From: Tidjanibacter sp.
GTDB taxonomy: Bacteria > Bacteroidota > Bacteroidia > Bacteroidales > Rikenellaceae
DNA: 64,000 nucleotides
Reading direction: 5' to 3'
Assembly (NCBI GenBank): GCA_045596685.1
Contig: JAZOCT010000001.1
Coordinates: forward strand, 4,870-68,869
Part shown: in pieces, positions 1,349 to 38,552 of the stretch
Numbering within the stretch: position 1 is the first letter of the stretch
Layout: each line of letters opens with the position of its first letter
Notes under the pieces: model-generated
Told to the model about the DNA's origin: nothing
What the model saw: only the letters and a program-made list of their open reading frames with translations
Database searches by the model: none
Program-made: the position numbers and the translations under genes

Positions 1349-1472
1349 AAAAAACGCAGATAAGCGAGCGGATTTTAGGCGCACAAGAAAATCCCCTCCG
1401 CAGTTTGCTCTTCGCAAATGAGGAGGGGATTTATCGCCGTGCAACGCCAAAGGCGCCGCTTATATGCGTTTT

Positions 1473-1474
<2 letters not shown>
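1349..1474. repeat. structured palindromic repeat of about 125 nt, copy 1 (family also at 17011, 31727, 50242, 50397)
   Basis: Ends aaaaaacgcagataagcg...cgcttatatgcgtttttt pair over about 20 bp. Apical motif cgcagtttgc-tcttc-gcaaatgag is flanked by helix aatcccctc/gaggggatt. It sits between the convergent genes typA and ntpK. Confidence 0.85.
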
Positions 1475-1946
<472 letters not shown>

Positions 1947-1969: not shown

Positions 1970-3793
1970 TTAGTTTGTTTTGCGTCTCTCAAAAGGAGTG
2001 TAAATCCTTGTTGAAGCCTCGAATCCCGCATTCTTGTAGAACTCGATAAAGGTAAGTCGCATTGGGTGTACAAAGGCACCAATGGCCGACATAAAGATGT
2101 TGATACCGTGACCAAAGCCCAAAATCAGGAACATCACCAATTGGCGAAGACCCGGGGTGTCGGGCGCAAGACTTCCGGCCAAGTCGTTGAACACCACCGC
2201 CAAAGCACCACCCGAAAGGCTGATGGCAAATAGGCGGACGTAACTCAACACATCGCCCAGCAGACCCGTAAGGTTGTTATAGGTATCCCACAAGCCCGAG
2301 CCAAAATTGACCAAAGGATTGCGGTTGGGGTTGTTCAAAAGGAGCATCAGCACTGCACCGACAATCAGCACACCGAGGAAGATGGGCGACGAGAAGCCAA
2401 AGCCCGCAACTCCCACCATCGGCAGCAAGAATGCCAACAAGCAATCAACCAAGATGATAAGCCACCCAAGAGTGCCAAACGAATACTTGAAGCCGTAGGC
2501 AATAGTGGTGTTTATCACGTTGAGTACCAATGCAAAGATAATCTGAACGATACCGCAGCCGAGTGCGATGTAGAAGAGTTGGTCGTTGATGGTCTGCATC
2601 GCATTGTTGTACCACTCGGGAACACCCAATGTGCGCAACGACACGCCAAAGACGTTACCAATACAAAGACCAAAGAGCACCGAAGCCGCACCCAACCACA
2701 TAACAAGTTGGGAGATAAGGCCCATACCCTTCATCTTCTTCAAGAACATAAACAGACCTATAAGGAAGAAGGTCGCACCATAGCCCGCATCGCCAATACA
2801 GAAGCCGAAGAAGAGCATATAGAAGGGTGCAAAGTACCTCGTGAGGTCCATAGTGCCATACTTGGGTACAGCATAGAAGTCGCCAATGAACTCAAAGGGT
2901 TTGGCAAACCAACCATTTTTGAGTTTCACAGGGGTATCGTCCTCCATTGTGGGTTTCTCCTTAACATAGAGCACATCGCCCTCGCCTTCGAGGAGCGCAT
3001 CCACCTCGGGGGCGTTCTCCTCGGGAGCCCAACCTTGCAGAACGATAAGTTTACCCTCTGCCTCTTGGTCACCACTGCGGCTCACCTGACTGAACTGCAA
3101 CTCATCTTTGAGGCTGTTCTCGTGGTCGACAATCAGTGCCTCGCTTGCCACACAGCGCGCCATAACACCCTGCCACTCTGCGAGTTCTGCCTGTAAGGAG
3201 GCAATCTCTCGACCTTTATCCTCGGCATTGAGCGTGGGGGTCTTAATCACCTGCGCATCAATCTGTGGTGCGGGTTCACCCTTGCGTGTAACTGCCACAA
3301 AGTAGGTCACACCTGCCTTCTCGGCAATGGGCTCAACGGTATACATCTCACCCCAAGTGGCTATCCCTTGTGCGTACTCATTGGAGTAGCAGGAGTAGAA
3401 GTGGAGCAAGATACCCTCCGATTCGAGGCGCGCGATGGACTCGGGTGCAAAGTTGCCCCACACTGCAAGTTCCTCGGCCTCCTTTGTTGCTTTGGCAATC
3501 TGCGCATTGAGGGAGTCAATAGCCGCCGATGCTTTGCGGTAGTTTTCGTAGGCCTCCTCACCGCTGGCGAAAGGCTCACCAGAGGCGTATTGGGGCTGTT
3601 TTTTCAGAGTAGAGAACGATTCGGAAGCCGCCTTGTGAGCCTCAATCTCACCCAGCACCTCTCTTTCGCGCTCATTGGGTTCCCAACCGCTGGTTGTGAT
3701 GTCCACAACGCCGAGTTCCTGCAACTTTGCGAGGAACTCCTCCTGTGCCTTATGATAGAGCACAAGAGTATATTTGTTCATCTTAACTATCAT
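1970..3793 (-). CDS. ntpI: V-type ATP synthase subunit I (a-subunit homolog)
   Basis: 607 aa, with a soluble coiled N-terminal half and a multi-TM C-terminal half. It overlaps the ntpD stop by 4 nt. Confidence 0.8.
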   Translation of the reverse strand: MIVKMNKYTLVLYHKAQEEFLAKLQELGVVDITTSGWEPNEREREVLGEIEAHKAASESFSTLKKQPQYASGEPFASGEEAYENYRKASAAIDSLNAQIAKATKEAEELAVWGNFAPESIARLESEGILLHFYSCYSNEYAQGIATWGEMYTVEPIAEKAGVTYFVAVTRKGEPAPQIDAQVIKTPTLNAEDKGREIASLQAELAEWQGVMARCVASEALIVDHENSLKDELQFSQVSRSGDQEAEGKLIVLQGWAPEENAPEVDALLEGEGDVLYVKEKPTMEDDTPVKLKNGWFAKPFEFIGDFYAVPKYGTMDLTRYFAPFYMLFFGFCIGDAGYGATFFLIGLFMFLKKMKGMGLISQLVMWLGAASVLFGLCIGNVFGVSLRTLGVPEWYNNAMQTINDQLFYIALGCGIVQIIFALVLNVINTTIAYGFKYSFGTLGWLIILVDCLLAFLLPMVGVAGFGFSSPIFLGVLIVGAVLMLLLNNPNRNPLVNFGSGLWDTYNNLTGLLGDVLSYVRLFAISLSGGALAVVFNDLAGSLAPDTPGLRQLVMFLILGFGHGINIFMSAIGAFVHPMRLTFIEFYKNAGFEASTRIYTPFERRKTN

Positions 3794-9169: not shown

Positions 9170-9190
9170 TTTTTATTGTTCAATTATTAT

Positions 9191-9224
9191 AATTTTGAAT
9201 TTTGAATTCTAAATTTTGAATTTC
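9191..9224. repeat. TTTTGAA-type heptamer/octamer tandem array
   Basis: aattttgaattttgaattctaaattttgaatttc. It fills most of the 54-nt gap between the DUF4301 gene stop and the ntpE start. Confidence 0.85.
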
Positions 9225-16839: not shown

Positions 16840-16845
16840 CAAGAG

Positions 16846-16873
16846 AAAGCCACTCGAAAGAGTGGCTTTTGTT
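16846..16873 (+). terminator. intrinsic terminator after tRNA-Val
   Basis: Hairpin aagccactc-gaaa-gagtggctt followed by tttt. Confidence 0.7.
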
Positions 16874-17010
16874 GTTGATAGGGGTGGCCGAATTTATTCG
16901 AAGCCACCCCTATCGGATTATATGATCTATACGGCTTATAGAACCATATGGGACTTATATGGTCTTCGGGCTCGCTTCTGCGAGCCCGCAGTTTACTTAA
17001 TCACCAACGC

Positions 17011-17131
17011 AAAAACGCATATAGCGAGGGGATTTCAAGGCTTGCGAAGAAGGCGGTCGCGCAGTTTACTATCGTAAATGAGCAGACCGCCTTCAAGCGT
17101 AACGCGGAAATCACCCGCTATATGCGTTTTT
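17011..17131. repeat. structured palindromic repeat of about 125 nt, copy 2
   Basis: aaaaacgcatatagcg...cgctatatgcgttttt. Apical motif cgcagtttac-tatc-gtaaatgag with helix gaaggcggtc/gaccgccttc. It abuts the stop codon of the S46 peptidase gene. Confidence 0.85.
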
Positions 17132-19154
17132 ACTTGATGGTCATTTCGTCGAGAAGATACCCTGCCCCGCCAATCTTGTCGATAACAAACAACACATAGC
17201 GAATATCCACAGAAATGTTGCGACAAATATCGGGGTCGTAGTCCAGGTCACTCATCGTACTCAACCAAGTACGGTCAAAGTTGATACCAAGAAGTTCGCC
17301 ACGACCATTGAGAATGGGGCTACCACTATTGCCACCCGTCGTGTGATTTTTGGCAAGGAAGGCCACAGGAATGGTATAGCGACCATCCATCTCCACACCC
17401 CACCTGCCATACTCCTTCGAGGCGTACAAATCGCGCAGGCTCTGTGGAATATCGTAGTCGTAGATTTCGGGGTTATCCTTCTCAATGATACCATCGAGGG
17501 TGGTATAGGGCAGGTGGTAGACACCATCGGCTGCCTCATAGCCGGCCACCGAGCCGTAGGCCACACGAAGTGTGAGGTTGGCATCGGGATAGAATGGGCG
17601 GGTGGGTTCGAAGGCCATCTGACCACGCATATAGGTTTTATAGAGTTCGGTAATCTCCTTATTGAGAGTCATATATTGGGGCGAGAGTCTTTCCATATAG
17701 ACCTCATCGAAGGCCTTACGCATAACCCTTGCGGGGTCCGAATCAAAGTCGTAGCCCTCTTTGCGTGCCTTTTGGAGTTCCTCGGCAGAGGTGATGCGCG
17801 AAGAGCCGAAGAGCCACTCTACAAAGGCCTCCACCGAACCACACTCGGCAAGGCGCGCAGAGTACCACTCGGGCACAAACTCCGCACCCACATTCTCGCC
17901 AAAATCGCGCAACATCTCCACTGCCACACGTTGGTCGATGGCGGGTAGGTAGTCTTTATAGTTGGGCTCCACACTCTCGGCATTGAGGCGGCGAGGAGTG
18001 GCGAGGCCCATCAGTTCGATGGCATAGATAGCCTCATTGTAGTAGTCGCGCGTGATGGCAAAGGGGAGCAATTCGGCATACTTGGCGTGGAGCCTATCGA
18101 GCACACCTTCGTACTCGGTGCCCGCAGCCCACTCCTCGAAGCGCTCCTCGTAGGCCACCTTCTTTGCCACCGTATTGCGCCTTGCAAGACCGAGGCTCTC
18201 ACCCTGCCATTTTTTCCAAGCATTGGCAATGCCTGCGTGCTTGGAGGCATACATAATGCGTGTTGCCACATCCTTACTCTGCGCCTCGGAGATAATGTCG
18301 AGCCTCTTTGTGCGCAGGCGAATCTTCGCCGGATTGGAGTAGTTGAGCGTGTAGTCCACAAAGTCGCTGGTCACATACTCCCTTGTGCTGCCCGGGAAAC
18401 CATACACAAAGGTGAAATCACCCTCGGCAGCCCCCTCGGTAGAGATTGCAAAGTGACGTTTTGGACGGTAGGGCACATTCTCGGGCGAGTAGTCGGCAGG
18501 CTGATTGTCCTTGTTGGCATAGATGCGGAAGATGGAAAAGTCACCCGTATGGCGGGGCCACATCCAATTGTCCGTATCGCCACCAAATTTACCGATACTC
18601 GAAGGGGGTGCACCCACCAATCGCACATCCCTATACACCTGATAGACAAACAGATAGTAGGTATTGTTGTAGTAGAGGCTCTCCACCGACGCGGAGTACT
18701 TGCCCCCCTCTACTGCCTCGTCGATGATACTCTGTGCGCTCTCACCGGCCTCAATCCTCGCGGTCACATCCTCCATTCGTACAAGGAACGAAACGGTGAG
18801 TCCAGGGTTAGGCAACTCCTCCGAGCGATTCATAGCCCAGAAACCGTTGGTTAGGTAGTCGTGCTCCACGCTACTATGGTACTGAATCTGTCCGTAGCCA
18901 CAGTGGTGGTTGGTGAGAAGCAGACCCTCGCCCGATACCAATTCGCCCGTACAGCCCCTGCCGAAAAGGACAATGGCATCTTTGAGTGCTGCCTGATTGA
19001 CACTATAAATATCCTCGGCAGAGAGTTCAAAGCCCTTTGCCTGCATATCCTTTATGCGCTCACCAATGAGTGATGGGAGCCACATACCCTCGTCGGCTCT
19101 CACACCCGCAAGTGTCACAACCGAGAGCAACAACACAGCAAAAAATCTCCTCAT
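17130..19154 (-). CDS. S46-family dipeptidyl-peptidase (DPP7/DPP11-like)
   Basis: 674 aa. A signal peptide is followed by DEGMWLP, and TNHHCG provides the catalytic His context. Confidence 0.85.
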   Translation of the reverse strand: MRRFFAVLLLSVVTLAGVRADEGMWLPSLIGERIKDMQAKGFELSAEDIYSVNQAALKDAIVLFGRGCTGELVSGEGLLLTNHHCGYGQIQYHSSVEHDYLTNGFWAMNRSEELPNPGLTVSFLVRMEDVTARIEAGESAQSIIDEAVEGGKYSASVESLYYNNTYYLFVYQVYRDVRLVGAPPSSIGKFGGDTDNWMWPRHTGDFSIFRIYANKDNQPADYSPENVPYRPKRHFAISTEGAAEGDFTFVYGFPGSTREYVTSDFVDYTLNYSNPAKIRLRTKRLDIISEAQSKDVATRIMYASKHAGIANAWKKWQGESLGLARRNTVAKKVAYEERFEEWAAGTEYEGVLDRLHAKYAELLPFAITRDYYNEAIYAIELMGLATPRRLNAESVEPNYKDYLPAIDQRVAVEMLRDFGENVGAEFVPEWYSARLAECGSVEAFVEWLFGSSRITSAEELQKARKEGYDFDSDPARVMRKAFDEVYMERLSPQYMTLNKEITELYKTYMRGQMAFEPTRPFYPDANLTLRVAYGSVAGYEAADGVYHLPYTTLDGIIEKDNPEIYDYDIPQSLRDLYASKEYGRWGVEMDGRYTIPVAFLAKNHTTGGNSGSPILNGRGELLGINFDRTWLSTMSDLDYDPDICRNISVDIRYVLFVIDKIGGAGYLLDEMTIK

Positions 19155-21539: not shown

Positions 21540-22244
21540 TTAATTTTGAATTTTGAATTTTGAATTTTGAATTTCCAAAAGGTCGGGGCGCAGGCGTTTG
21601 GTACGTTCATAGGCTTGTTCCTCCTTCCACGCCTCAATTTTGGCAAAATTGCCACTTGTGAGCACCTCGGGCACCCTCCAACCATTGAACTCCGCAGGGC
21701 GAGTGTAGATGGGTGGTGCCAGGAGGTTGTCTTGGAACGAGTCGGTGAGTGCCGACTCCTCGTCGCCAATAGCCCCGGGCAGCAACCTCACAACACTATC
21801 CGTAATGATTGCCGCAGCCAACTCACCTCCCGTAAGCACATAGTCGCCAACCGAGATTTCTCGCGTGATGAGGTGTTCTCGGATGCGGTGGTCAATGCCC
21901 TTATAGTGCCCACAAAGGATGATTATATTTCCAAGCGTCGAGAGGCGGTTGGCCTCCTGTTGGTTGTAGGTCACTCCGTCGGGCGAGGTGAAGATTATCT
22001 CGTCGTACTCTCGCTCGCTTTTGAGTTTTTCGATGAGTCTGTATACGGGCTCCACCATCATAACCATACCCGCCTCGCCACCAAAGGGGTAATCATCCAC
22101 CTGTCCGTGCTTATAGGGTGTATGGTCGCGGATGTTGTGCACAACGATTTCCACAAGCCCTTTCTCCTGCGCACGACGCAGAATGGACTCATTGAGTGGT
22201 GAGGTCAGCAAGTCGGGCACGACTGTAAGTATGTCAATTCTCAT
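21540..22244 (-). CDS. trmD: tRNA (guanine37-N1)-methyltransferase
   Basis: 234 aa, with [10 protein letters not shown]...[10 protein letters not shown]. The last ~11 codons and the stop come from a heptamer array. Confidence 0.9.
21542..21575. repeat. AATTTTG heptamer tandem array (about 5 units)
   Basis: aattttgaattttgaattttgaattttgaatttc. It lies inside the 3' end of trmD and 20 nt upstream of the lpxB start. Confidence 0.9.
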
Positions 22245-23039: not shown

Positions 23040-24443
23040 ATGGCAAGAAATCGACACCCCCGATTGGAGGGACTCAAAATAACCTCACTGGCCGCCGAAG
23101 GCAACGCGATGGGCAAGTGGAACGACGTGGTGGTATTCGTACCGATGACCGTTCCGGGCGACGTTGTGAATGTGCAGATTCGCACCAAACGTCGTCGCTA
23201 TATGGAGGGCTACGTCACCGAGTACATCGAGCGCTCACCCCTGCGCGTGGAGCCTTTCTGCGCCCACTTTGGCGTGTGTGGAGGTTGCAAATGGCAGAAC
23301 ATCCCATACGGTGAGCAGATTGCCTTCAAGCAGCAACAGGTCTTCGACCAACTCACCCGCATCGGACACCTTACGATTCCCGAAATAAGGCCCATTCTCG
23401 GTTCGCGCAAGACCGACCACTACCGCAACAAACTCGAATTCACCTTCGCACCCAAGCGTTGGAAAACCTACGAGGAGGTGGCACGAGGTGAGGAGATTGC
23501 CGACACACCCGCTTTGGGTTTCCACATCCCCTCGATGTTCGACAAGATTCTCGACATCGACTATTGTCACCTGCAACCCTCACCCTCCAACGAGATTCGC
23601 AATGAGGCAAGGCGCTTTTGTATCGAGCACAATTACCCCTTCTATGACATCCGTCAGCACTCGGGGCTTATGCGTAACATAGTCATCCGTACTGCCTCGA
23701 CGGGCGAAGTGATGGTCATCGTGGTCTTTGCTGTGGAGGACAAGGAGCGCATCGAAGAGTTTATGGAGCACCTGAAAGTAACCTTCCCCGAGATTACCTC
23801 GCTGGTCTATATGATAAACGACAAACTCAACGATTCGCTCGGCGATAGGGAGCCCATCCTCTACTCGGGTCGTGACCACATCTTCGAGGAGATGGAGGGC
23901 CTGCGCTTCAAGATTGGCCCCAAATCGTTCTACCAGACCAACTCCGAGCAGGCATACGAACTCTACAAGGTGGCACGCGAGTTTGCCGACCTTACGGGCG
24001 ACGAGGTGGTCTATGACCTCTATACGGGTACGGGTACGATTGCCAACTTTGTGGCATCGAAGGCCAAGAGTGTAGTCGGTGTGGAGTACGTCGAGGAGGC
24101 TATTGAGGATGCGAAGGTCAATTCTGCAATCAATGGCATCACCAACACCACTTTCTATGCGGGCGATATGAAAGATGTTCTCAATGATGAGTTTGTGGAG
24201 CAAAACGGCCATCCCGATGTAGTGATACTCGACCCCCCGAGGGCGGGCGTACACGAGGATGTGATTGCCACAATCCTTCGTGCCGCACCCGACAGAATTG
24301 TCTATGTTAGTTGCAACCCCGCAACACAAGCACGCGACTTGGCAATGATGAACGACCACTACGAGATTGTAGCCGTACAACCCGTAGATATGTTCCCCCA
24401 CACCCACCACGTTGAAAATGTAGTAAAACTTATAAAGCGATGA
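23040..24443 (+). CDS. rlmD: 23S rRNA (uracil-C5)-methyltransferase RlmD/RumA family
   Basis: 467 aa. It has a TRAM-like N-terminus, the Fe-S cysteine cluster CAHFGVCGGCKWQ, and a SAM methyltransferase C-terminal domain. Confidence 0.85.
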   Translation: MARNRHPRLEGLKITSLAAEGNAMGKWNDVVVFVPMTVPGDVVNVQIRTKRRRYMEGYVTEYIERSPLRVEPFCAHFGVCGGCKWQNIPYGEQIAFKQQQVFDQLTRIGHLTIPEIRPILGSRKTDHYRNKLEFTFAPKRWKTYEEVARGEEIADTPALGFHIPSMFDKILDIDYCHLQPSPSNEIRNEARRFCIEHNYPFYDIRQHSGLMRNIVIRTASTGEVMVIVVFAVEDKERIEEFMEHLKVTFPEITSLVYMINDKLNDSLGDREPILYSGRDHIFEEMEGLRFKIGPKSFYQTNSEQAYELYKVAREFADLTGDEVVYDLYTGTGTIANFVASKAKSVVGVEYVEEAIEDAKVNSAINGITNTTFYAGDMKDVLNDEFVEQNGHPDVVILDPPRAGVHEDVIATILRAAPDRIVYVSCNPATQARDLAMMNDHYEIVAVQPVDMFPHTHHVENVVKLIKR

Positions 24444-25039
24444 AACGAATTATCACAACCCTCGCCACCATTATGAGCGCACTCTCGCTCGTGGCACAAA
24501 CCACCGTTGTCGAATCACCACAAACCGACGTTCTCTATCGTCTGCCGATGGAGGGCGGAGTGAAGATTACAGCACGCACCCTCACCCCTCGTAACCTCGG
24601 CATTGCTATGCACCAGAACCTCTTGGACTTCTGCGCGTGGGAACTCCTCACCACAGAGGCCACCGATATTGTAGCACCCCGTGAGGGTGTGGTTGAGAAG
24701 GTGACCGATGGCTCACTCCTGCTTCTCCACCCCGATGGGCTCTACACCCTTTTGGATGCAATGGGTAGCGTCACTGTCAAAGAGGGCGACAAGGTGGCCA
24801 AAGGTGACAAGGTGGGCACAGCACAGCCTCTGGATGGGGGCAAATGGAGAGTGTGGGTGGTTGCCTACTACCTGAAAAACAACCCCTCCTATGGTCAGGT
24901 GGCACAGAGTGGAAACTACGAGCACCTCTACCAATACCTCAACCCCGTGTTCTCCACGAGGGGTAAATGCAAAGTGCAACTCTCCGACGGTGGCTCCTAC
25001 ACCGTCAAGGCTCGCACTTGGTGCTGGCCCTGGGAATAG
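24440..25039 (+). CDS. secreted LytM/M23-like domain protein (possibly degenerate)
   Basis: 199 aa with a signal peptide. LLLLHPDGLYTLLDAMGSVTVKEGDKVAKGDKVGT resembles the M23 core. It overlaps the rlmD stop by 4 nt. Confidence 0.4.
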   Translation: MKRIITTLATIMSALSLVAQTTVVESPQTDVLYRLPMEGGVKITARTLTPRNLGIAMHQNLLDFCAWELLTTEATDIVAPREGVVEKVTDGSLLLLHPDGLYTLLDAMGSVTVKEGDKVAKGDKVGTAQPLDGGKWRVWVVAYYLKNNPSYGQVAQSGNYEHLYQYLNPVFSTRGKCKVQLSDGGSYTVKARTWCWPWE

Positions 25040-25129
25040 AGAGAGGCGTTTGCCCAACTCGAAAAATCGTAGGCAAGGTTTTTGCCTACATCACAGTTTT
25101 AGGATTCTTATCTAAAAGACTATAACGCT

Positions 25130-25585
25130 ATGGAGAAGAGAATGATATTGGAATACCGTCACTACGACGCTATTGGTGAGATGGCTCACGAGGATTTGGA
25201 ACTTGTGGAAGCAGCCCAGAGAGCGTGCGAAAAGGCCATTGCCAACTACTCCAACTTCCACGTTGGGGCAGCAGCAAGGCTCGAAAGCGGACGCATTGTG
25301 ACGGGTAGCAACATCGAGAGCGAGGTCTACCCCGCAGGCTTGTGTGCCGAGCGCACCCTGCTCTATCACCATCAAGCATCCACCCCCGAGGATAGGATTG
25401 TGGCACTCGCCATAGCCTCCTCGCCCAGCCATCGAGAGTGCTACCCTTGTGGTCAGTGCCGCCAGGTGTTGCACGATGTGGAGAAACGTCAGGGACTCAA
25501 CTTCCGCGTCATTATGAGTGGTGCGGGCTCGGCTACGGTGGTCGAAAAGGCGAGCGACCTATTGCCATTCACATTCATCCTCTAA
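25130..25585 (+). CDS. cdd: cytidine deaminase
   Basis: 151 aa, with zinc motifs CAERTLL and PCGQCRQVL. Confidence 0.85.
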   Translation: MEKRMILEYRHYDAIGEMAHEDLELVEAAQRACEKAIANYSNFHVGAAARLESGRIVTGSNIESEVYPAGLCAERTLLYHHQASTPEDRIVALAIASSPSHRECYPCGQCRQVLHDVEKRQGLNFRVIMSGAGSATVVEKASDLLPFTFIL

Positions 25586-25610
25586 CCCTCTAACACACAC
25601 CCAAACGATT

Positions 25611-26303
25611 ATGTTCAAAAAACAAGATATTCTCTACGAAGATAACCACATCTTGGCTGTCAATAAACACTCGGGCGACTTGGTGCAGTCCGATGCCGAA
25701 GGTACGCTCGGATTGGAAGACGAAATCAAGGAGTTCATAAAACGTCGCGACGATAAACCGGGGGAGGTTTTCCTCGGTGTTGTCCACCGCATAGACCGCC
25801 CTGTGAGTGGCGTGGTGCTCTTTGCCAAGACCAGCAAGGCTCTGGTGAGGCTCAACGAGATGGTGCGCAACCGCAACATCGACAAACGCTATTGGGCAGT
25901 GACCGAAGAGGCCCCCGAAGAGTTGGAAGGCACGCTGGTTCATTTCATCACACGCGACGGCAAGACCAATAAGGCGGTGGCCTACAACTCCCAAAAAGGC
26001 GATGCCAAACGTGCCGAGTTGCGCTATAAGATGCTCGGCGGTAGCAAGAACTACAAACTCTTGGAGGTGGAACTCATCACGGGTAGGCACCACCAGATTC
26101 GTTGCCAACTCGCCAAAGTGGGTTGCCCCATCAAGGGAGACCTTAAATATGGAGCCAAACGCTCCAATCAGGGCGGTGGCATCTCGCTCCATTCGCGCAG
26201 TGTGGAGTTTATCCACCCCGTAAGGAAGGAGCCCCTGAAAATTGTCGCACCCGTACCCGTAGGTGACGCTCTGTGGAGTTTCTTCGAGGAGAGCCAATCG
26301 TAA
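25611..26303 (+). CDS. RluA-family RNA pseudouridine synthase
   Basis: HRIDRPVSGVVLFAKT motif. I moved the start to MFKKQD, internal to the tracked ORF starting at 25518. Confidence 0.8.
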   Translation: MFKKQDILYEDNHILAVNKHSGDLVQSDAEGTLGLEDEIKEFIKRRDDKPGEVFLGVVHRIDRPVSGVVLFAKTSKALVRLNEMVRNRNIDKRYWAVTEEAPEELEGTLVHFITRDGKTNKAVAYNSQKGDAKRAELRYKMLGGSKNYKLLEVELITGRHHQIRCQLAKVGCPIKGDLKYGAKRSNQGGGISLHSRSVEFIHPVRKEPLKIVAPVPVGDALWSFFEESQS

Positions 26304-26317
26304 AAAACGAAAGTGAT

Positions 26318-26348
26318 TTTGATTATTGAGCAACAGATGTTAATTTTG
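26318..26348 (+). promoter_or_regulatory. candidate Bacteroidetes sigma-A promoter for the islet ATPase operon
   Basis: TTTG (26318-26321), N19, then TAATTTTG (26341-26348). This matches the -33 TTTG / -7 TAnnTTTG consensus. The ATG is 22 nt downstream. Confidence 0.45.
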
Positions 26349-26369
26349 TGGAAATTATAGCAATTCAGT

Positions 26370-27737
26370 ATGATACATTTTAAGTTAAATAATTTTAGAG
26401 CTATCGGCTCTGCCGAAATTGATATTAAAGGTATTACGGTTGTATCTGGCGAGAATGGTTGTGGTAAGAGTACTATATCTCGCTTGTTGTACAACACATT
26501 TGACATTGCTAATAACTATGAGAAACTCATTAAAGCAAATCTAAACTCCAAGTTGGCTGATTTGTATAGTCTGATTAACTCAATTATGAGAGATATGACG
26601 TTTGGAAGATATGGACAGCTTTCGGAAGAGGAAAACGAATGGATTCACTATTCTGGTCGTAGGTATTATTCCATACAAGAGGATGAGGAAATAGAAGATT
26701 ACTTGGAAAGGATTATCGCCACAATTGATAAAATCGAGAAAGCATTTATTGGTGCGATGTCAATAAAAAGTGAAAATATGAGAATATATCCGCTCTCGAT
26801 TATTCAACAAACAATAGTTAGACTTGGTTCTACATTGGGAGTATCTATTGATGTAGAATGTTTGAACAGAATAGATGATGTCATTGCGGCTTTCAATGAG
26901 CTCAAAGAAGAATGTGAACGTGTAGTAAGACAAACAGCTAGAGCAATTGATTTTAGACCAATAAATTTCTTGAAAGATGACCTATCTTCTAAGTTTTCTC
27001 AGCGAATTGAAGATATTTTTTTGCATATTAGCGAATATAGTACCTCTATCACCAACTGGGATTACAATACATTGGAACAACCAATAGAGGTGCGTAAATG
27101 CGTCTATATTGATACCCCTATGGCTGTTGGTAGGAAAAATAAAACCAATAACCCATATTGGATTAAATTGAATGATTTATTGGAAAGTAAAGATGTGAAT
27201 AATGCTCTTTGGGATGTAACAGCACAAATCAATCAAACGCTAAATAATGATGTATTAAAGGGAAGTACATATTTTGATGATAATAAAATAAATTCATCTT
27301 TTAAGTACAAACGTATTGATGGCAAAGTGTTTGATTTAGAAGAGTGTGCAACGGGTATCAAGTCATTCGGTATTCTGCAAATGTTGCTTGAAAATGGTCA
27401 TCTTAATAAGAATTCATTGTTGATTATTGATGAACCAGAAGCACATCTTCATCCACAATGGATTGTTGAGTATGCTCGATTAATAGTTTTGCTTAATAAA
27501 CTTTTAGGGGTTAAGGTGTTTATTGCAAGCCACAATCCTGATATGGTAAGCGCAATAAGATATATTTCTGAAAAAGAAGGTATGCTTGATCAAGTGAGTT
27601 TCTATTTGGCAGAGAAAAATGAGGGTTCCTATACCTACGACTATAAATACTTGGAATCCGATATTGAGCCAATTTTTGCGTCTTTCAATATTGCACTTGA
27701 CCGTATTAACCAATATGGAACTATTGAACAAGAATAG
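26370..27737 (+). CDS. ABC/SMC-type (AAA_21/AAA_15-like) ATPase
   Basis: 455 aa. Walker A is SGENGCGKST. There is a helical insertion of about 300 aa. Walker B/D-loop is LLIIDEPEAHLHPQW and the H-loop is IASHNPDMV. The codon usage is AT-rich and unlike the flanking genes. Confidence 0.75.
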   Translation: MIHFKLNNFRAIGSAEIDIKGITVVSGENGCGKSTISRLLYNTFDIANNYEKLIKANLNSKLADLYSLINSIMRDMTFGRYGQLSEEENEWIHYSGRRYYSIQEDEEIEDYLERIIATIDKIEKAFIGAMSIKSENMRIYPLSIIQQTIVRLGSTLGVSIDVECLNRIDDVIAAFNELKEECERVVRQTARAIDFRPINFLKDDLSSKFSQRIEDIFLHISEYSTSITNWDYNTLEQPIEVRKCVYIDTPMAVGRKNKTNNPYWIKLNDLLESKDVNNALWDVTAQINQTLNNDVLKGSTYFDDNKINSSFKYKRIDGKVFDLEECATGIKSFGILQMLLENGHLNKNSLLIIDEPEAHLHPQWIVEYARLIVLLNKLLGVKVFIASHNPDMVSAIRYISEKEGMLDQVSFYLAEKNEGSYTYDYKYLESDIEPIFASFNIALDRINQYGTIEQE

Positions 27738-27740
27738 AGT

Positions 27741-28229
27741 ATGGCTTATAAATACTGTGAAAAAACTACTAAAAAACATCCGAAATATAAGGATGTTTTT
27801 GCCAAACCTCTATCGGTTGCTATAAAGGATGAGGGTGGACCAATTATTGGTATCCATAGCATTGTTGTTGACCTAGATGCTATGGAGAAGGATAATGCTT
27901 TAAGGCAGAATAGAAACCAAATATCTACAATGGATATATTCTTTGGAATATCACAAGAGGTTACACATAAAAGCCCTCAAATATGTCTAGTAGATTTTAA
28001 ATATAGGGTAAAGGGGAATAGTGGATTTGACATAAAAGATTGTGAAAAAAAGATAAAAGACTCTATCGTAATACTTGGAAGAGATGTGATTATTCATCCA
28101 AACTATTATTTTGTTTTTTCAAAGAACAATCAGGTAAAGCGAAGTATTTTATCTAGAAAGAATCTGTCAAACCCGAACTCACCAATGAAATTCATTAATA
28201 CGAACACTTTTACAGAATTGTTTTGGTAA
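27741..28229 (+). CDS. hypothetical 162-aa protein, partner of the ATPase
   Basis: It starts 4 nt after the ATPase stop, and its AT-rich composition matches the ATPase gene. I recognise no family. D65 and D85-F-K87 could form a PD-(D/E)xK-like motif, but this is speculative. Confidence 0.55.
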   Translation: MAYKYCEKTTKKHPKYKDVFAKPLSVAIKDEGGPIIGIHSIVVDLDAMEKDNALRQNRNQISTMDIFFGISQEVTHKSPQICLVDFKYRVKGNSGFDIKDCEKKIKDSIVILGRDVIIHPNYYFVFSKNNQVKRSILSRKNLSNPNSPMKFINTNTFTELFW

Positions 28230-28230
28230 T

Positions 28231-28269
28231 ATAAATATGGCTCGGAATAAATTTCCGAGCCATATTTAT
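28231..28269. terminator. bidirectional hairpin terminator
   Basis: Perfect 17-bp stem ataaatatggctcggaa / ttccgagccatatttat with a 5-nt loop, between convergent genes. Confidence 0.7.
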
Positions 28270-28275
28270 TACAAT

Positions 28276-28971
28276 TTATAAGCCAACTGCGATAAAAGGA
28301 AGCAATGTTGACACAACTACCACAACACCAGTGCTAATATATATAGTTGCTTTTTCTGTATCATATTCGACTAAACTTTGTATATTAAACTCACTTCCGA
28401 CAAAAGTCAGAGTGTATTCTATCTTCTTACCATCAACTTCAATAGGTAGTAAGAGTCTCGTTTCTGTGTAATACGGGTTGGTTTTGTATAACTGCAAGAT
28501 GTTTTCTGCTGCATTTATGTTGTCAAATTTGTTGTAATTAGGTAAAGCGATAGACCAATTACCATCTATGAGTGTTAAACCATCTACAGGTGCAATGGTA
28601 TCTTCTAATCTTGCACCTGCTGGGATTACGGAAGGTACTTGTGCCTTTTCCTTGTCTATTAGTTTTATTCCCATATGGATTATTCGGTGGGAAGAACCTT
28701 CATTATCAATAAATGCTGCATCATCCCATAAGATACGGATAGAAGAGGAGTGATTATTTATTATTGTCAAATCAATTTGGCTCCCCGAGACTGAAGCGGA
28801 TGGGCAGAGTGTGACATATTCATCTGAATATGTGTTATTGGAATGCACACCAAGCGAATTATGATTAGCGTTTGCTTCTTTGAGTTTGTACTTGCCATCA
28901 ATAAAATAGGTGGTTGTGTAACAGCTTGACAAGGTCGTTATTGCCAAAATAATTAGTAGTACTTTTTTCAT
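28276..28971 (-). CDS. hypothetical lipoprotein with a C-terminal TM anchor
   Basis: 231 aa counted from MKKVLLIILAITTLSSC (lipobox). C-terminal hydrophobic helix TGVVVVVSTLLPFIAVGL. AT-rich. Confidence 0.6.
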   Translation of the reverse strand: MKKVLLIILAITTLSSCYTTTYFIDGKYKLKEANANHNSLGVHSNNTYSDEYVTLCPSASVSGSQIDLTIINNHSSSIRILWDDAAFIDNEGSSHRIIHMGIKLIDKEKAQVPSVIPAGARLEDTIAPVDGLTLIDGNWSIALPNYNKFDNINAAENILQLYKTNPYYTETRLLLPIEVDGKKIEYTLTFVGSEFNIQSLVEYDTEKATIYISTGVVVVVSTLLPFIAVGL

Positions 28972-29300
28972 GGCTTTGTTTGTGTTAGTTAAACAATAGT
29001 ATTCTGCCTTTCTGCTATTGTGAAACCAACTACACAAAAAAGCGCAGGAGGACTTATGTAATTCAGAGGTACTGGCATACCTATACTACAACATAAGCAC
29101 CACCCACGCTTTGGCGTAGGCGTTAAGTGCCCATTGTTCTTGTAGTAATAAGAAAAGTGCCAGTTTTCTGAATTCGAACAATAGCAAACGCTACAAAATA
29201 TGTTTGTCAAGATAAATATAATCCTCTCAACACTGCAAATATAGGTATAAATAGCGATTTATATCTATTTATTTTGTATTTTTGTGCATAAAAATTAGTA

Positions 29301-29332
29301 GGCGTGCAACGAAATGCCCCTGTTTTGCATCT
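29301..29332 (+). promoter_or_regulatory. 32-nt conserved motif (candidate ECF-type promoter or operator), copy A
   Basis: GGCGTGCAACGAAATGCCCCTGTTTTGCATCT. It is 27/32 identical to 53798-53829 and lies 37 nt upstream of the lipoprotein ATG. Confidence 0.5.
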
Positions 29333-29369
29333 ATATGTTATAGAGCACAAACTTAACACCCTAACTACT

Positions 29370-29735
29370 ATGAAACGCGGAATCAAAAACATCCTTTTGA
29401 GCCTTGCAGGTTTCTCGGCTGCCCCCATTCTCACCGCCTGCTATGGTATGCCCGACAACTACTACGACGAGCCGGAGATGTTCAACGACATAAAAGGCTT
29501 CGTAGTCGATACGGAGTTGAACCCCATCAAAGATATTGAGGTCTATGTAGATGGACAGACTTGTCGCACCAATGAGAATGGCAGTTTCCACCTCGATGGC
29601 GAATTTTGGGGCTACACCACCCTCACCGCTACCGATGTGGATGGCGAGGCAAACGGTGGCGAATTCGGCACTGTGGATGTGCCCGTATCGGAGGAAAACC
29701 ACGCAATCATAAGTGTCGTAATGAGTAGAAAATAG
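29370..29735 (+). CDS. small lipoprotein with a carboxypeptidase-regulatory-like beta-sandwich domain (radical-SAM-associated)
   Basis: 121 aa with lipobox ILTAC. IKGFVVDTELNPIKDIEVYVDGQTCRTNENGSFHLDG fits the CarboxypepD_reg pattern. Confidence 0.65.
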   Translation: MKRGIKNILLSLAGFSAAPILTACYGMPDNYYDEPEMFNDIKGFVVDTELNPIKDIEVYVDGQTCRTNENGSFHLDGEFWGYTTLTATDVDGEANGGEFGTVDVPVSEENHAIISVVMSRK

Positions 29736-29739
29736 CGCT

Positions 29740-30816
29740 ATGGCAAACATCAAAATAGGACTACGCAAGAGGTTGGCACTCAATCTGTTTGCAGGCATCA
29801 AGCGCGAACTTGCCGAGAAACACGAGTTGCGCGAAATATTCTGGGAGTGTACCCTACGTTGCAACCTCAACTGTCGCCACTGCGGGAGCGATTGTCGCTC
29901 CTCGTCGGCAACACCCGATATGCCCGCCGAGGATTTTCTCGCGGCTGTGGACAAAATCACACCCCACGTCAATCCACACAAGGTGATGGTCGTAATCACC
30001 GGTGGTGAGGCCCTCTGTCGCAAAGACCTCGATAGTGTGGGGCGAGAACTCTACAAACGTGGCTACCCCTGGGGAATAGTCACAAATGGTATGCTCCTCA
30101 CAAAGGAGCGTATGCGCTCACTTGTAGCCTCGGGTCTGCGCTCCATTACGGTGTCGATTGACGGGTTCGAGGAGCAACATAACTACATACGTCGCAACCC
30201 CAATAGTTGGCAAAATGCCATCCGAGCACTCGATGTCATAACAGCCACCAAAGGTATCGCCTACGATGTCGTAACCTGCGTAAATAGAGATAATTACCGC
30301 CATCTTACCGAGTTCAAAGAGTTGCTCATTGCACACGGATGCAAGGCGTGGAGGCTCTTCACAATCTTCCCCGTAGGGAGGGCTGCCGAGGATGATGCGC
30401 TCCAACTCCCACCCGAGGAGTATCGCGGGCTGATGGATTTTATCGAAGCAACCCGCAAGGAGGGACGCATCCAGTGTAACTACGCCTGCGAGGGTTTCCT
30501 CGGAGGGTACGAGGCCGAAGTAAGGGACAACTTCTTCGGTTGTCAGGCGGGCATCGGCATTATAGGCATCAAGGTTGATGGCGCGATTTCGGGTTGTACG
30601 AGCATACGCGCGGGATTCGACCAGGGCAACATCTACACCGATGACATCTGGGATGTGTGGCAAAACCGCTTCGAGCCCTTCCGCAACCGCGCGTGGGCAC
30701 ACAAAGGGGTGTGCAAAGATTGCAAGATGTGGAAATTCTGCGAGGGCAACGGTATGCACCTCTACGACGACAACCACGAACTACTCCACTGCAACTACCA
30801 GAGATTGTGTAAGTAA
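29740..30816 (+). CDS. radical SAM protein with a C-terminal SPASM domain
   Basis: 358 aa. The CxxxCxxC motif is CNLNCRHC. The C-terminal Cys cluster is GCQAG...SGCTS...CKDCKMWKFCEGNG. Confidence 0.85.
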   Translation: MANIKIGLRKRLALNLFAGIKRELAEKHELREIFWECTLRCNLNCRHCGSDCRSSSATPDMPAEDFLAAVDKITPHVNPHKVMVVITGGEALCRKDLDSVGRELYKRGYPWGIVTNGMLLTKERMRSLVASGLRSITVSIDGFEEQHNYIRRNPNSWQNAIRALDVITATKGIAYDVVTCVNRDNYRHLTEFKELLIAHGCKAWRLFTIFPVGRAAEDDALQLPPEEYRGLMDFIEATRKEGRIQCNYACEGFLGGYEAEVRDNFFGCQAGIGIIGIKVDGAISGCTSIRAGFDQGNIYTDDIWDVWQNRFEPFRNRAWAHKGVCKDCKMWKFCEGNGMHLYDDNHELLHCNYQRLCK

Positions 30817-30847
30817 TCCCCCCCTATCCCCAATAGCCCATACGACA

Positions 30848-31624
30848 ATGAAGAAAATTCTACCTTTTATTCTACTATTTATACTCGCCATTCCGCAAGG
30901 GGCCTCGGCGCAAGAGAGATTATACACCGAAGAGCCCACCTATCTCACCGACTTTGAACAAGATTACGCAGAGAGAATCTACGAGATTGGAAAGTGGGCA
31001 ACAATAAGTAGTGGTGCGGTTGTGGCAAGTGGCGCACTCATCTGGTATCTTGGCGAGTTATCCATCCGCGAACAACTCAAAGATTCCGACGTGGTAAATG
31101 GTATTGTATCCACAGTAGGTTTGATGCAAACCCTTATGGGTGGCATTTGCCTTACAGCAGCGGTCCCCCTCTATCTGTGGGGCTTGGATTTGAATAATAA
31201 CCCCGATGGAATAAGCCTCGAAATGGGAGAAAAACAACGCGGTTGGGGCGGCAGATTGGATGTTGGTTGGGGATTTTCCAACACGCCAAACATCGGAGGT
31301 TCAATTGGTTACAACTTCAACCACAGACTCTTCATAGGTATCGGTGCGGGCTACGAATACGACCTCAATGGCGAGGGGCCCTACAACTATCCCGTCATCC
31401 CCGCCTATGCCGACATCAGGTACCGATTGGGCGGTAGTCGCATCACCCCCTATCTTGGCGTGAAGGCCGGTTTCGACTTCAATGGCGTGCCTATCCCCTA
31501 CGGCACCATTGATTGGGGTGTGAGCCAGCGATGCCGCAACTCGTCGGGCGCGTGGTGGTATGCCCTTTCGCTCTCCAATAACTACAACAACACTCTATCG
31601 TTTAGAATAAGTCGCTCATTTTAG
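30848..31624 (+). CDS. secreted/membrane protein with TM segments and a porin-like beta-strand C-terminal region
   Basis: 258 aa from MKKILPFILLFILAIPQGASA. There are two hydrophobic helices, followed by alternating aromatic/Gly strands (GYNFNHRLFIGIGAGYEYD). Confidence 0.55.
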   Translation: MKKILPFILLFILAIPQGASAQERLYTEEPTYLTDFEQDYAERIYEIGKWATISSGAVVASGALIWYLGELSIREQLKDSDVVNGIVSTVGLMQTLMGGICLTAAVPLYLWGLDLNNNPDGISLEMGEKQRGWGGRLDVGWGFSNTPNIGGSIGYNFNHRLFIGIGAGYEYDLNGEGPYNYPVIPAYADIRYRLGGSRITPYLGVKAGFDFNGVPIPYGTIDWGVSQRCRNSSGAWWYALSLSNNYNNTLSFRISRSF

Positions 31625-31726
31625 CCGCTCATCCCCTCTTGGTTGACGGGTACCGTCAACTTTTTTATAGAGGGTGCCGTAACGGCACTTCTGTGAGGGG
31701 GGTACTCTCGAAAGTTCGGAAGAAAT

Positions 31727-31854
31727 AAAAAAAACGCATAGAATCGAGCGAGTTATAGGCGCACAAGAAAGCGGGCTCCGCAGTTTACTAAACGTAAATG
31801 AGGTGCCCGCTTATCGCAGTGCAACGACTAAATCGCCGATTATATGCGTTTTTT
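31727..31854. repeat. structured palindromic repeat of about 125 nt, copy 3
   Basis: aaaaaaaacgcatagaatcg...cgattatatgcgtttttt. Apical motif cgcagtttac-taaac-gtaaatgag with helix aagcgggc/gcccgctt. It abuts the 3' end of tRNA-Arg. Confidence 0.85.
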
Positions 31855-31855
31855 G

Positions 31856-31927
31856 TAGTCCCACCGGGAATCGAACCCAGATTTACAGTTTAGGAAACTG
31901 TCGTTCTATCCGTTGAACTATGGAACC
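31856..31927 (-). tRNA. tRNA-Arg (anticodon CCT)
   Basis: Hand-folded 72-nt cloverleaf. Anticodon arm acagt-TTCCTAA-actgt, T-arm ctggg-ttcgatt-cccgg. Confidence 0.85.
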
Positions 31928-32023
31928 AAGCTGGTCTTCTCTTCCAAGACCTCGTGCCCAGAGGCGCTGCGGAAACCTTCAATCAGCCAAACAACCAACA
32001 TCCAGCCCCCTTATCTCACCCCC

Positions 32024-35761: not shown

Positions 35762-35850
35762 TAACGTGAGGTTTGCGGAAATGGTGCAATAGTAAGCACG
35801 TTATTAACAGCAAGTTGGCGATGCGCCATTTTCGCAAAACTCACGTTAAA
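35762..35850. repeat. 88-nt element with TIRs of about 28 nt, copy A
   Basis: taacgtgaggtttgcggaaatggtgca...tgcgccattttcgcaaaactcacgtta. The reverse complement of copy B (40863-40950) matches it almost perfectly across the inner ~70 nt. A solo TIR-like fragment, aacgtgagtttcg, occurs at 35589-35601. Confidence 0.85.
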
Positions 35851-35915: not shown

Positions 35916-36521
35916 TTAGAACTTCACGCCTGCTTTGAGATACACACCTGGAATCGTGTAGTCCTCATAATCTATAACTTCTTCAACTCGATTGATATTC
36001 AAGGAGATGTATAGCGGTTTCGAGTAGCGATACACATCGCAACCGATTTCGAGTGTGGGGATAAATGCAGAGCCAAGTCCATACTCGCCACTATCAGATA
36101 TATATGGTGGTAAAAGCACTCCTACCCAACTTGCAATATAGGGTTGGAACTCGCTCTCTGGGAATGTAGATGCAATAGGGTGAATTTTGACACCACCGCG
36201 CAACTCAATACCAAAATTGATGTCAAAGTAGTACCAATAGCCCGCCCAAAGTCCTGCAACAACCGAAACATAGGAGCCAAAGCGGTATTGCGCAGTGTAG
36301 TCCACGCCCACATTTACCTCACCGGTATCATTGTAGCCCACAAGCGCACCAACCGAGTGGGAGAACCTACCCACCTCGTCGCCCCAATCACCAGCCGTAG
36401 GCCTCTCGCGCTCGATTTTCACTCGTGTCTGCTTCACAACACCCGAGGGGCGAATCATCTGTGCATTGGCGAGGCTCGCCGCACCCACCAATGCTAAAAG
36501 TGTGATAATTAGTTTCTTCAT
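35916..36521 (-). CDS. small outer-membrane beta-barrel protein (paralog 1)
   Basis: 201 aa with a signal peptide. It ends in ...LKAGVKF and has alternating aromatic/Gly strands. Confidence 0.6.
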   Translation of the reverse strand: MKKLIITLLALVGAASLANAQMIRPSGVVKQTRVKIERERPTAGDWGDEVGRFSHSVGALVGYNDTGEVNVGVDYTAQYRFGSYVSVVAGLWAGYWYYFDINFGIELRGGVKIHPIASTFPESEFQPYIASWVGVLLPPYISDSGEYGLGSAFIPTLEIGCDVYRYSKPLYISLNINRVEEVIDYEDYTIPGVYLKAGVKF

Positions 36522-36527
36522 ATTTTA

Positions 36528-37139: not shown

Positions 37140-37156
37140 AGTCCTCGAAATAGTTT

Positions 37157-37880: not shown

Positions 37881-37905
37881 TACTCATAGGCCATAGGGCC
37901 GTCTT

Positions 37906-38526: not shown

Positions 38527-38552
38527 ATCATTATAGCGTAAAAAAATTTTCC

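Follow-up and report, generated by a model that had tools for sequence, protein, structure and literature searches.

What kind of genetic element is the long hairpin at positions 1349–1474 of a 64,000-nucleotide (nt) stretch of a Tidjanibacter sp. genome (assembly GCA_045596685.1, contig JAZOCT010000001.1, positions 4,870–68,869; the whole stretch is hereafter called the window), which has four relatives elsewhere in the same stretch? An earlier note, made from the sequence alone, had described these copies as a structured repeat family of about 125 nt. We find that the family is scattered over unrelated loci across many bacterial phyla, that its stems covary while its asymmetric, purine-rich loops are fixed, and that its structure is under selection. 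With somewhat better than even confidence, we regard the copies as members of a distant branch of a superfamily that includes ERIC (short for enterobacterial repetitive intergenic consensus), that is, as non-autonomous palindromic insertion elements of 120–150 nt that are akin to MITEs (miniature inverted-repeat transposable elements), probably target TA dinucleotides and supply terminator hairpins in this genome.

Five hairpins in the window and the family they belong to

The five copies were confirmed by reading the sequence and by two covariance models, the first built from relatives, which were run over the whole window with filters off and a cut-off of E ≤ 1. The covariance-model scan that the earlier note had called for thus recovered, with either model, exactly the five known copies and nothing further at that cut-off; with the less biased second model, the next-best window hit scored 12.3 bits. 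The copies and their apices are as follows.

1349–1474, plus strand: c1, full hairpin of the subfamily with A and T runs; covariance hit 1351–1472 at 78 bits.
1399–1422, plus strand: apex of c1, CGCAGTTTGC-TCTTC-GCAAATGAG.
17011–17131, plus strand: c2, full hairpin with a CAAGGC / GTAACGC internal loop; covariance hit 17012–17130 at 103 bits.
17060–17082, plus strand: apex of c2.
31727–31854, plus strand: c3, full hairpin; covariance hit 31731–31852 at 81 bits.
31779–31802, plus strand: apex of c3.
50236–50378, minus strand: c4, full hairpin of another subfamily; covariance hit 50250–50369 at 97 bits.
50390–50530, minus strand: c5, degenerate tandem copy; covariance hit 50405–50521 at 68 bits.

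Each of c1, c2 and c3 folds as one long imperfect hairpin (−63.7, −66 and −57.4 kcal/mol; z = −7.9, −9.9 and −8.1, respectively; 0 of 200 shuffles as stable in each case). At the base they share the stem AAAAACGCATA...TATGCGTTTTT, which carries runs of five to eight A before the hairpin base and five to six T after it. The minus strand of c4 folds at −62 kcal/mol (z = −5.6) and its plus strand at only −44.3 kcal/mol, and its outer stem (TTTTTGTGAGGTGG / CGCCCACAAAAA) is without T runs. The full hairpin is not formed in c5 (z = +0.47): the 5′ arm is replaced and the covariance alignment contains many non-canonical pairs, with the apex and 3′ arm retained at 91% identity to c4 across 76 nt. The details from which the earlier note had argued for a preserved fold can all be read in the sequence. 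Copies c1, c4 and c5 have the apical stem TTTGC/GCAAA, copies c2 and c3 the stem TTTAC/GTAAA; the helices aatcccctc/gaggggatt, gaaggcggtc/gaccgccttc and agcgggc/gcccgct do not resemble one another, and each is nevertheless complementary; CGCAG and TGAG are kept in all copies; and only in the plus-sense strand is the apex closed by a G-T pair.

The reach of the family was determined by scanning one genome per species with the apex pattern CGCAGTTTRC-N3-6-GYAAATGAG, the loci being examined as 8-kb pieces; the counts given below (103, 108 and 139 copies) and the neighbour analyses refer to loci among the matches listed. The pattern occurs at no fewer than 118 loci across species genomes. Among the matches listed, the hosts include many Alistipes, Tidjanibacter, Rikenellaceae and Bacteroidaceae metagenome-assembled genomes (MAGs), as well as Prevotellaceae, Cytophagales and Schleiferiaceae; isolates of Pseudomonas and genera split off from it, Halomonas, Salinicola, Acinetobacter, Rheinheimera and Thalassolituus; and MAGs of Zetaproteobacteria, Thiotrichaceae, Chromatiales, Pseudohongiella, Desulfobacterales and Rickettsiales. 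A copy in an Eremiobacterota MAG lies on a 1.7-Mb contig, and several of the phylum assignments are based on MAGs. Pseudomonas copies are ~95% identical, in different flanks and on plasmids, and the element was found on plasmids of Pseudomonas, Halomonas and Fukatsuia, in every case unannotated. As a 24-nt core is common to unrelated phyla, non-homologous loci and plasmids, the element itself must have spread horizontally. A phage origin was rejected on the basis of only 7 hits in 2.9 million viral contigs. The family is also absent from Rfam 15, a comparison that had been proposed at the outset: at the gathering threshold only tRNAs were found in the window and no match fell on the elements in 16 loci (an unrelated RsmZ was seen), and permissive scans of c1 and one Pseudomonas copy gave chance-level hits only. 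Literature searches by sequence string and by topic returned no description of the hairpin family.

In nearly all listed matches the apex pattern forms the tip of a 120–150 nt hairpin with a common order of parts. From the outside in, a lineage-specific outer stem is followed by a short helix, an internal loop of CAAGGC (5′) and TAACGC(AG) (3′), a variable helix and, in many cases, a GA/GA loop; next come a 6-bp helix containing an A-A mismatch, the G-N-A / GA loop and, at the tip, the apical stem of 5 bp, which G-T closes. Most subfamilies keep AAGGC / TAACGC; in some Rikenellaceae subfamilies a paired TTTGTGCC/GGTGCAAA segment replaces this loop.

Other arrangements were seen beside this common plan. 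Short or divergent subfamilies occur in Zetaproteobacteria (L046, L101) and in gammaproteobacterial MAGs (L009, L047, L048); in the zetaproteobacterial subfamily AAGGC and AACGC directly flank the inner helix, without a middle helix, and in other divergent copies an exact apex is joined to quite different arms. Such subfamilies could serve as bridges for defining the minimal core. Tandem or nested copies are common outside the window as well (L021, 1353–1588; L029, 7166–7410; L036, 4673–5070; L084, 209–444), and the first unit of a tandem is often truncated at the junction, which suggests insertion into or beside an existing copy.

Covariation was assessed on a plain MAFFT alignment of 103 copies (A2), whose RNAalifold consensus has 20 pairs, 14 of them with two-sided changes. 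Paired cells amounted to 91.2%, compared to 67.8% after shuffling (0 of 500 shuffles reached the observed value) and 30–43% with slid partners, and cells with a two-sided change numbered 481, compared to 169 and 67–175, respectively. The pair adjacent to the loop is G-C in 58 copies and C-G in 40. A covariance model run over the loci added 12 copies without the exact apex pattern, the apical stem of which also covaries (CCTAC/GTAGG, TGTAC/GTACA, CATAC/GTATG, TTGGC/GCCAA); fixed even in these apex variants are CG[C/G]AG ... TGAG and the G...T pair that closes the stem. The family therefore shows genuine compensatory change, as the earlier note had proposed for the window copies, and is not a passively decaying palindrome. 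A small-peptide reading of the ATG in AAATGAG was rejected by eye, as the downstream codons track the stem covariation and no conserved peptide is seen.

The strand-specific fold that had been noticed in the window likewise extends to the family: in 98 of 108 copies the plus sense has the greater stability, on average by 6.4 kcal/mol (Wilcoxon p = 1e-16). Simple deamination bias leads one to expect G-T pairs on the coding or leading strand. Because the placement of G-T near stop codons is opposite to this expectation, we read the asymmetry, by inference, as reflecting selection on the single-stranded form.

Comparison with ERIC and other palindromic repeats

ERIC, also named IRU, was reportedly described by Sharples and Lloyd in 1990 and by Hulton and colleagues in 1991. 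It is an imperfect palindrome of ~127 bp and has been used for strain typing for 35 years; to our knowledge, no transposase has been linked to it, and neither its way of moving nor the reason for its conservation is known. ERIC has been reviewed as a MITE restricted to Enterobacteriaceae and Vibrionaceae (PMC10969869), with terminal inverted repeats (TIRs), flanking TA, transcription together with genes and, in Yersinia, an RNase E effect that depends on orientation (PMC3184786; PMC10969869; PMC2267715). For the comparison, the ERIC centre was rebuilt from the ERIC-PCR primers, and the rebuilt centre matched 5,426 of 5,426 complete E. coli genomes at a median of 9 places per genome. The ERIC set comprised one E. 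coli copy and eight diverse enterobacterial copies.

ERIC and the hairpin family are both imperfect palindromes that form one long hairpin, of ~125 nt in ERIC and 120–143 nt in the window copies, and the order of motifs is the same: AAGGC(G), a helix, G(N)AG, a 5-bp stem closed by G-T, a loop of 4–5 nt, TGA, a helix and AACGCA. In ERIC these appear as GGAAGGCG in the 5′ arm, an inner 6-bp helix and AACGCAGC in the 3′ arm, and its apex places GA/GA beside a G-T-closed CTTAC-ATAA-GTAAG (stem type NTTAC/GTAAN). Strand asymmetry has the same sense as in the family in 9 of 9 ERIC copies (6–16 kcal/mol). Both are intergenic, and in 4 of 9 loci the 3′ end of ERIC coincides with the end of an opposite-strand gene or lies no more than ~9 nt from it.

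The two also differ in several respects. The loop beside the apex is 2x2 (GA/GA) in ERIC and 3x2 (G-N-A/GA) in the hairpin family, and the segment between AAGGC and the inner helix, largely unpaired in ERIC, is a well-paired, covarying helix in the family. The ERIC TIRs (TATACTC...AATTCGAGTTGCAG / CTGCAACTTGAA...GAGTATA) are absent from the family, whose ends are instead AAAAACGCATA.../...TATGCGTTTTT (c1–c3) or other lineage-specific stems. With the highly conserved central inverted repeat of ERIC (...CCCCAGGAGCTTACATAAGTAAGTGACTGGGG...), the family has the layout and several motifs in common, whereas the sequence similarity is weak. As to host range, ERIC belongs to Enterobacteriaceae and Vibrionaceae, and the hairpin family to Bacteroidota, Pseudomonadales, Oceanospirillales, Zetaproteobacteria and others. 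In a literature search of incomplete coverage, no paper reporting ERIC from Pseudomonas or Bacteroidota came up.

Quantitatively, the relationship was evaluated with two family models, R1, which is apex-biased and over-trained by the collection method, and R2, built from 28 diverse copies, 12 of them apex variants. R2 aligned the E. coli ERIC from end to end at 18.3 bits (E = 0.0015), compared to 12.3 bits for the best chance hit in 128 kb of window sequence, and detected three more ERICs at E = 0.02–0.03, all on the correct strand. In local alignments of the 9 ERICs against 108 copies, 51 reached a score of at least 14 in the same orientation, compared to 1 for reverse-complemented ERIC and 3–15 for shuffles; the best pair, a Rahnella ERIC and an Alistipes copy, scored 25 against a shuffle maximum of 15–20. 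As for a match to an already described family, which the earlier note had thought would count against its proposal, the resemblance to ERIC/IRU comes close, the family has no counterpart in Rfam, and the hallmarks of REP elements are lacking.

The latter elements and attC sites had also been invoked, as models for a REP/RAYT-like or attC-like logic, and for this no support was found. None of the ~59 window open reading frames (ORFs) gave a Pfam hit to a transposase, RAYT, Y1/HUH or integrase family, and the window holds no RAYT, IS200 or integrase gene; no protein family recurs next to the loci examined (at least 118); and the centre of the hairpin, not its foot, is conserved. REPs have been described as 20–40 nt long, with a GTAG/CGTC head and an associated RAYT gene (PMC3733652, PMC2817692). 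The hairpin family resembles REPs in being an abundant intergenic palindrome and REPINs in forming long hairpins, and recognition of a single strand by a domesticated HUH enzyme would fit a strand-specific fold; unlike them, it measures ~125 nt, has no GTAG/CGTC head, is conserved at the hairpin tip and has no RAYT in the window. REP/RAYT identity was rejected for its wrong size, the missing head and the lack of a RAYT in the window.

An attC site has a conserved foot (R and L boxes, RYYYAAC/GTTRRRY) and a variable tip, and occurs once per cassette, in a single orientation, next to intI. The hairpin family shares with attC the conservation of structure rather than sequence, the asymmetric unpaired bases and the strand-specific fold, whereas its foot is lineage-specific, its tip is conserved and its copies are scattered among housekeeping genes, with no integrase in the window. 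With the tip conserved instead of the foot, and no cassette arrays, attC identity was rejected too.

The Correia or NEMIS elements of Neisseria are genus-restricted, with conserved 26-bp terminal repeats and a centre that is an IHF site. They are hairpin MITEs of 100–160 nt with TA flanks, are co-transcribed, and form RNA hairpins that a host RNase cuts (PMC10969869); we saw no sequence or motif similarity between them and the hairpin family. Compared to a generic MITE, the family is likewise short, non-coding and multi-copy with inverted ends, but its conservation is highest in the centre, and no related autonomous insertion sequence was found in the window or beside the family's loci, which number at least 118.

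Gene ends, insertion and competing explanations

The window comes from a Rikenellaceae chromosome close to Tidjanibacter: its housekeeping genes are those of a member of the Bacteroidota (BipA, a V-type ATPase operon, an S46 dipeptidyl-peptidase, PlsX, aspartokinase, LpxB, TrmD and CysS), and its aspartokinase segment has 82% DNA identity to a Tidjanibacter MAG. A protein look-up gave no exact match for its S46 peptidase. Three features of gene ends in the window bear on the placement of the hairpins.

1473–1475, minus strand: TAA stop codon of the V-ATPase c-subunit gene, to which the T-run of c1 contributes.
17130–17132, minus strand: TAA stop codon of the S46 peptidase gene, to which the T-run of c2 contributes.
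53549–53574, minus strand: probable remnant of an element's outer arm (GCGAGCACATCTCGTGGGGG...), ~26 nt, directly after the TAG stop of a LipB-like gene.

The 3′ T-run of c1 overlaps the TTA at 1473–1475, the stop of a minus-strand ATP-synt_C gene (1473–1931), and the 3′ end of c2 overlaps the stop at 17130–17132 of the minus-strand S46 peptidase gene (17130–19154). On its 3′ side c3 adjoins the 3′ end of a minus-strand tRNA-Arg (31855–31927), with TA dinucleotides at both ends of c3, and c5 follows the stop codon (50531) of the minus-strand gene 50531–51847. The full copies had been said to lie exactly between convergent genes and to abut the stop codon or tRNA 3′ end. They do so on the 3′ side of c1–c3 (the stops at 1473–1475 and 17130–17132 and the tRNA-Arg end at 31855) but not on the 5′ side, where spacers of ~100–240 nt hold other repeats.

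The same placement recurs in the family. For 139 copies, we determined how far from the apex the nearest stop codon lies, counting ORFs of 150 codons or more. Opposite-strand stops on the 3′ side cluster 46–60 nt from the apex, which corresponds to the hairpin base, in 42 of the 139 listed copies; the mirror arrangement (5′ side, same strand) accounts for 11 in that range, and the remainder are scattered. The resulting orientation bias is roughly 4:1 (estimated binomial p around 2e-5). The 42 junctions, which come from both Bacteroidota and Proteobacteria and include c1 and c2, read [T/C]TA in 36 cases (TAA or TAG stops) and TCA in 6; c3 abuts its tRNA 3′ end likewise. A cruder count of orientation relative to flanking ORFs had given a weak signal (33 vs 18) and is superseded by the stop-codon distances. 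TA dinucleotides flank the element at L001, L007, L021, L028, L102 and c3, and Pseudomonas copies end in (C)TA-G...C-TA(G).

Two sites were informative for turnover. The S46 stop codon is occupied in the same orientation in the window (c2), in L074 (Tidjanibacter) and in L138 (76% amino-acid identity), by elements of three different sub-types, which argues for turnover rather than conservation; 79 more distant S46 homologues have no element within 1.2 kb and carry ordinary terminators instead. At the LipB-like gene, the remnant at 53549–53574 is truncated by a TIR/minisatellite element, and the syntenic Tidjanibacter locus L011 has a complete element (3413–3532) at this position, starting with the homologous GCGAGTGTGCCTTGTGGG. 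The S46 and LipB-like sites behave as insertion hot spots with turnover.

We next consider termination. The bidirectional terminator role suggested in the earlier note is plausible for c1–c3, which would most likely act as factor-independent terminators because runs of five to eight A and five to six T bracket the hairpin. It does not define the family's function, because Pseudomonas-type and many Bacteroidota copies have no T runs. BipA and tRNA-Val, upstream of c1 and c2, have terminator hairpins of their own at 1113–1145 and 16845–16870. Like intrinsic terminators and the SPRITE of S. pneumoniae, c1–c3 consist of a hairpin followed by T runs (here on both strands) at gene 3′ ends; unlike these, they are hairpins of ~60 bp with conserved internal loops, and most members outside the window subfamily lack T runs.

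If the elements belong to an ERIC superfamily, they would insert at TA dinucleotides as ERIC does, with stop codons as tolerated TA sites. They would be mobilised in trans by machinery that reads the conserved folded core and not the variable ends; the reason for this view is that lineages differ in the ends but agree in the core, whereas an ordinary MITE shows the opposite. An inserted element would then be transcribed as the 3′ untranslated region (UTR) of the abutting gene, and c1, c2 and c3 would provide factor-independent termination of the V-ATPase operon, of the S46 peptidase gene and of tRNA-Arg, as well as of transcripts that arrive from the opposite direction. Selection against mRNA that carries the tightly folding strand with its loops would best explain the orientation bias, and the orientation-dependent RNase E destabilisation by ERIC in Yersinia parallels such selection. 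The hairpin family would accordingly extend an ERIC-like superfamily far outside its described range, with an architecture of its own (paired middle helix, 3x2 loop, different ends). More tentatively, and at a level we regard as doubtful, ERIC may be the enterobacterial tip of an ancient, horizontally spreading superfamily, in which the invariant asymmetric core, G(N)AG/TGA by the G-T-closed apex together with AAGGC/AACGC in most subfamilies, acts as a handle for mobilisation or processing machinery common to phyla, and insertion is tied to the 3′ ends of genes with the strand orientation fixed.

Several results weigh against this interpretation. The relationship to ERIC is statistically modest: R1 gives ERIC only ~9 bits (E ~0.3), an nhmmer profile of the window subfamily had no hit on the E. 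coli ERIC locus, and the likeness could stem from convergence on a common host factor instead of homology. The near-invariance of the apex in A2 is partly an artefact, because the copies were collected with the apex pattern. As for insertion, T...A is found at both flanks in only 2 of 8 copies of the window subfamily (a small regular-expression census), and the compared loci yielded no clean empty site with an unambiguous target-site duplication; element ends placed at the outermost pair of the minimum-free-energy structure were rejected, as they over-extend into the flanks and are useless for recognizing such duplications. No candidate mobilising gene was found in the window or recurring beside the family's loci: clustering of all ORFs within 2.5 kb in at least 118 loci gave no recurrent protein family, the only large neighbour cluster being spurious ORFs that run through the element itself. 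Most stop-abutting copies put the less stable strand into the mRNA of the abutting gene, and an RNA-level role of the better-folding strand is therefore not straightforward. Finally, a simple terminator scan, limited to short stems and not handling stems of 60 bp, did not call c1–c3, and their terminator function is a prediction from sequence features.

The main rival, which we consider unlikely, is that the copies are single-stranded DNA sites for recombination or transposition, read by an HUH enzyme (IS200/IS605- or RAYT-type) or a tyrosine enzyme (integron-like), with their orientation set by replication. Such sites would account for a fold that is strand-specific (98 of 108) though copies lie in both orientations relative to flanking genes, for asymmetric loops whose unpaired bases are conserved, a feature also of attC and IS608 ends, and for a copy orientation that flips in the window with the GC-skew sign and gene direction at ~40 kb. 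They are harder to reconcile with a conserved apex, as attC and REP hold their recognition and cleavage sites in the foot, with the lack of a GTAG/CGTC head and of cassette arrays, and with TA-type flanks and lineage-specific inverted ends that are MITE-like. Moreover, neither RAYT, TnpA nor IntI is encoded in the window, no protein family recurs within 2.5 kb in the loci examined (at least 118), and no replication origin is demonstrated in the window, with CysS, not DnaA, at the switch. A host-selected, cis-acting RNA module, such as a 3′ UTR terminator, stabiliser, processing signal or protein-binding hairpin that was duplicated and retained for its function and for which mobility is incidental or absent, is in our estimate rather improbable. 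Covarying stems with invariant purine loops, including the tandem G-A type typical of structured RNA, the intergenic position right after stop codons, the A/T runs around c1–c3 and the occupied S46 site in three related genomes would all be expected of it. Against this stand the horizontal spread required by a 24-nt core in unrelated phyla, non-homologous loci and plasmids, the local density of copies, which are sometimes tandem or truncated (L021, L029, c4/c5), the turnover implied by different sub-types at the S46 site, and the fact that the abutting gene usually transcribes the weaker-folding strand.

That the copies are independently transcribed small RNA genes appears very improbable. A strand-specific, highly stable fold with conserved loops is what such genes might show, and a plus-sense c1 or c2 RNA would need its own promoter, because BipA and tRNA-Val have their own upstream terminators; yet no conserved promoter-like sequence accompanies the copies, their ends are lineage-specific inverted repeats, copies overlap stop codons, and there is no match to an Rfam small RNA. 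Neither an RNA module nor small RNA genes sit well with the observed distribution; insertion of an ERIC-like element is our preferred explanation.

The compositional switch within the window deserves a separate description. Near 40 kb the sign of the GC skew is reversed, and genes switch direction at 42.4–42.5 kb, between cysS (minus) and a TMEM260-like gene (plus); the hairpin copies are on the plus strand to the left of the ~40 kb switch (c1–c3) and on the minus strand to its right (c4–c5). A replication origin was considered, but the gene adjacent to the switch is cysS and not dnaA; the switch may mark an origin, a terminus or a local effect.

Other repeats of the window and implications

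Several other repeats lie in the window. A second, unrelated repeat beside c1 (1146–1348) has inverted ends, GTCTAACGTCCAACGTCGCGGG.../...CCCGCGACGTTAGACGTTGGAC (28 nt, 86% complementary), and an interior of GC hairpins and a 9-bp minisatellite (GAACTCCCA, seven times). The GTCTAACGTCCAACGTCGCGGG-type end recurs at 37844–37866 and at 53575–53695, in the latter case followed by CCCTAACCT repeats. The same end also adjoins hairpin elements in L018, L074, L084 and L086, and hairpin elements and TIR/minisatellite elements seem to attract each other. Upstream of c2, the block 16880–16996 comprises period-9 repeats (TTATAnnnn), a GC hairpin (16967–16988) and a solitary exact CGCAGTTTAC motif without a partner arm (16987–16996); it may be what is left of another element, or else a variant minisatellite module. 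A low-GC stretch at 24000–32000 (0.45 vs ~0.52) ends at c3 and tRNA-Arg, and contains an AAA_15/AbiEii-like ATPase (26370–27737), several ORFs that gave no Pfam hit and a radical-SAM/SPASM protein; the stretch may represent a defence or accessory island that was acquired.

An 88-nt inverted repeat (35762–35849 / 40862–40949, 94% complementary), with arms 5 kb apart, brackets a block of ORFs without Pfam hits (35916–38987), and an array of 11-nt tandem repeats (TATACGCTGAT-like, 40137–40265) lies just inside it; the enclosed segment could be mobile or invertible. A small hairpin family, CGGGTATC-TTTTTTAA-TACCCG, with conserved flanks, has five intergenic copies in both orientations (40409, 40802, 45680, 56794 and 57004), and short tandem repeats of the AATTTTGAATTTTGAATTT type lie by gene starts in three intergenic regions (9189–9224, 21541–21575 and 45720–45753). 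Lastly, the 43-nt motif AAAATTAG-GGGGCGTGCAACG-TTTGCCCC-T-TGCATCT occurs at 29290–29332 and 53787–53829 (77% identical), just upstream of ORF 29304 and of an ECF sigma factor gene (53852), respectively. It is conserved at the syntenic Tidjanibacter locus (L011, ~3690–3720) and may be a leader or promoter element.

Returning to the hairpin family, a superfamily that crosses phyla allows comparisons for which ERIC by itself gave no basis: it singles out the nucleotides that matter, and it permits phylogenetic profiling of gene families that co-occur with the element. If the tentative extension to an ancient superfamily is true, it would reveal a new mechanistic class of bacterial mobile DNA, recognised via a folded single strand and not via terminal repeats. 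For gut Rikenellaceae, the finding means that unannotated elements sit on the stop codons and tRNA 3′ ends of housekeeping genes, where they can confuse assembly and gene calling and probably set transcript 3′ ends.

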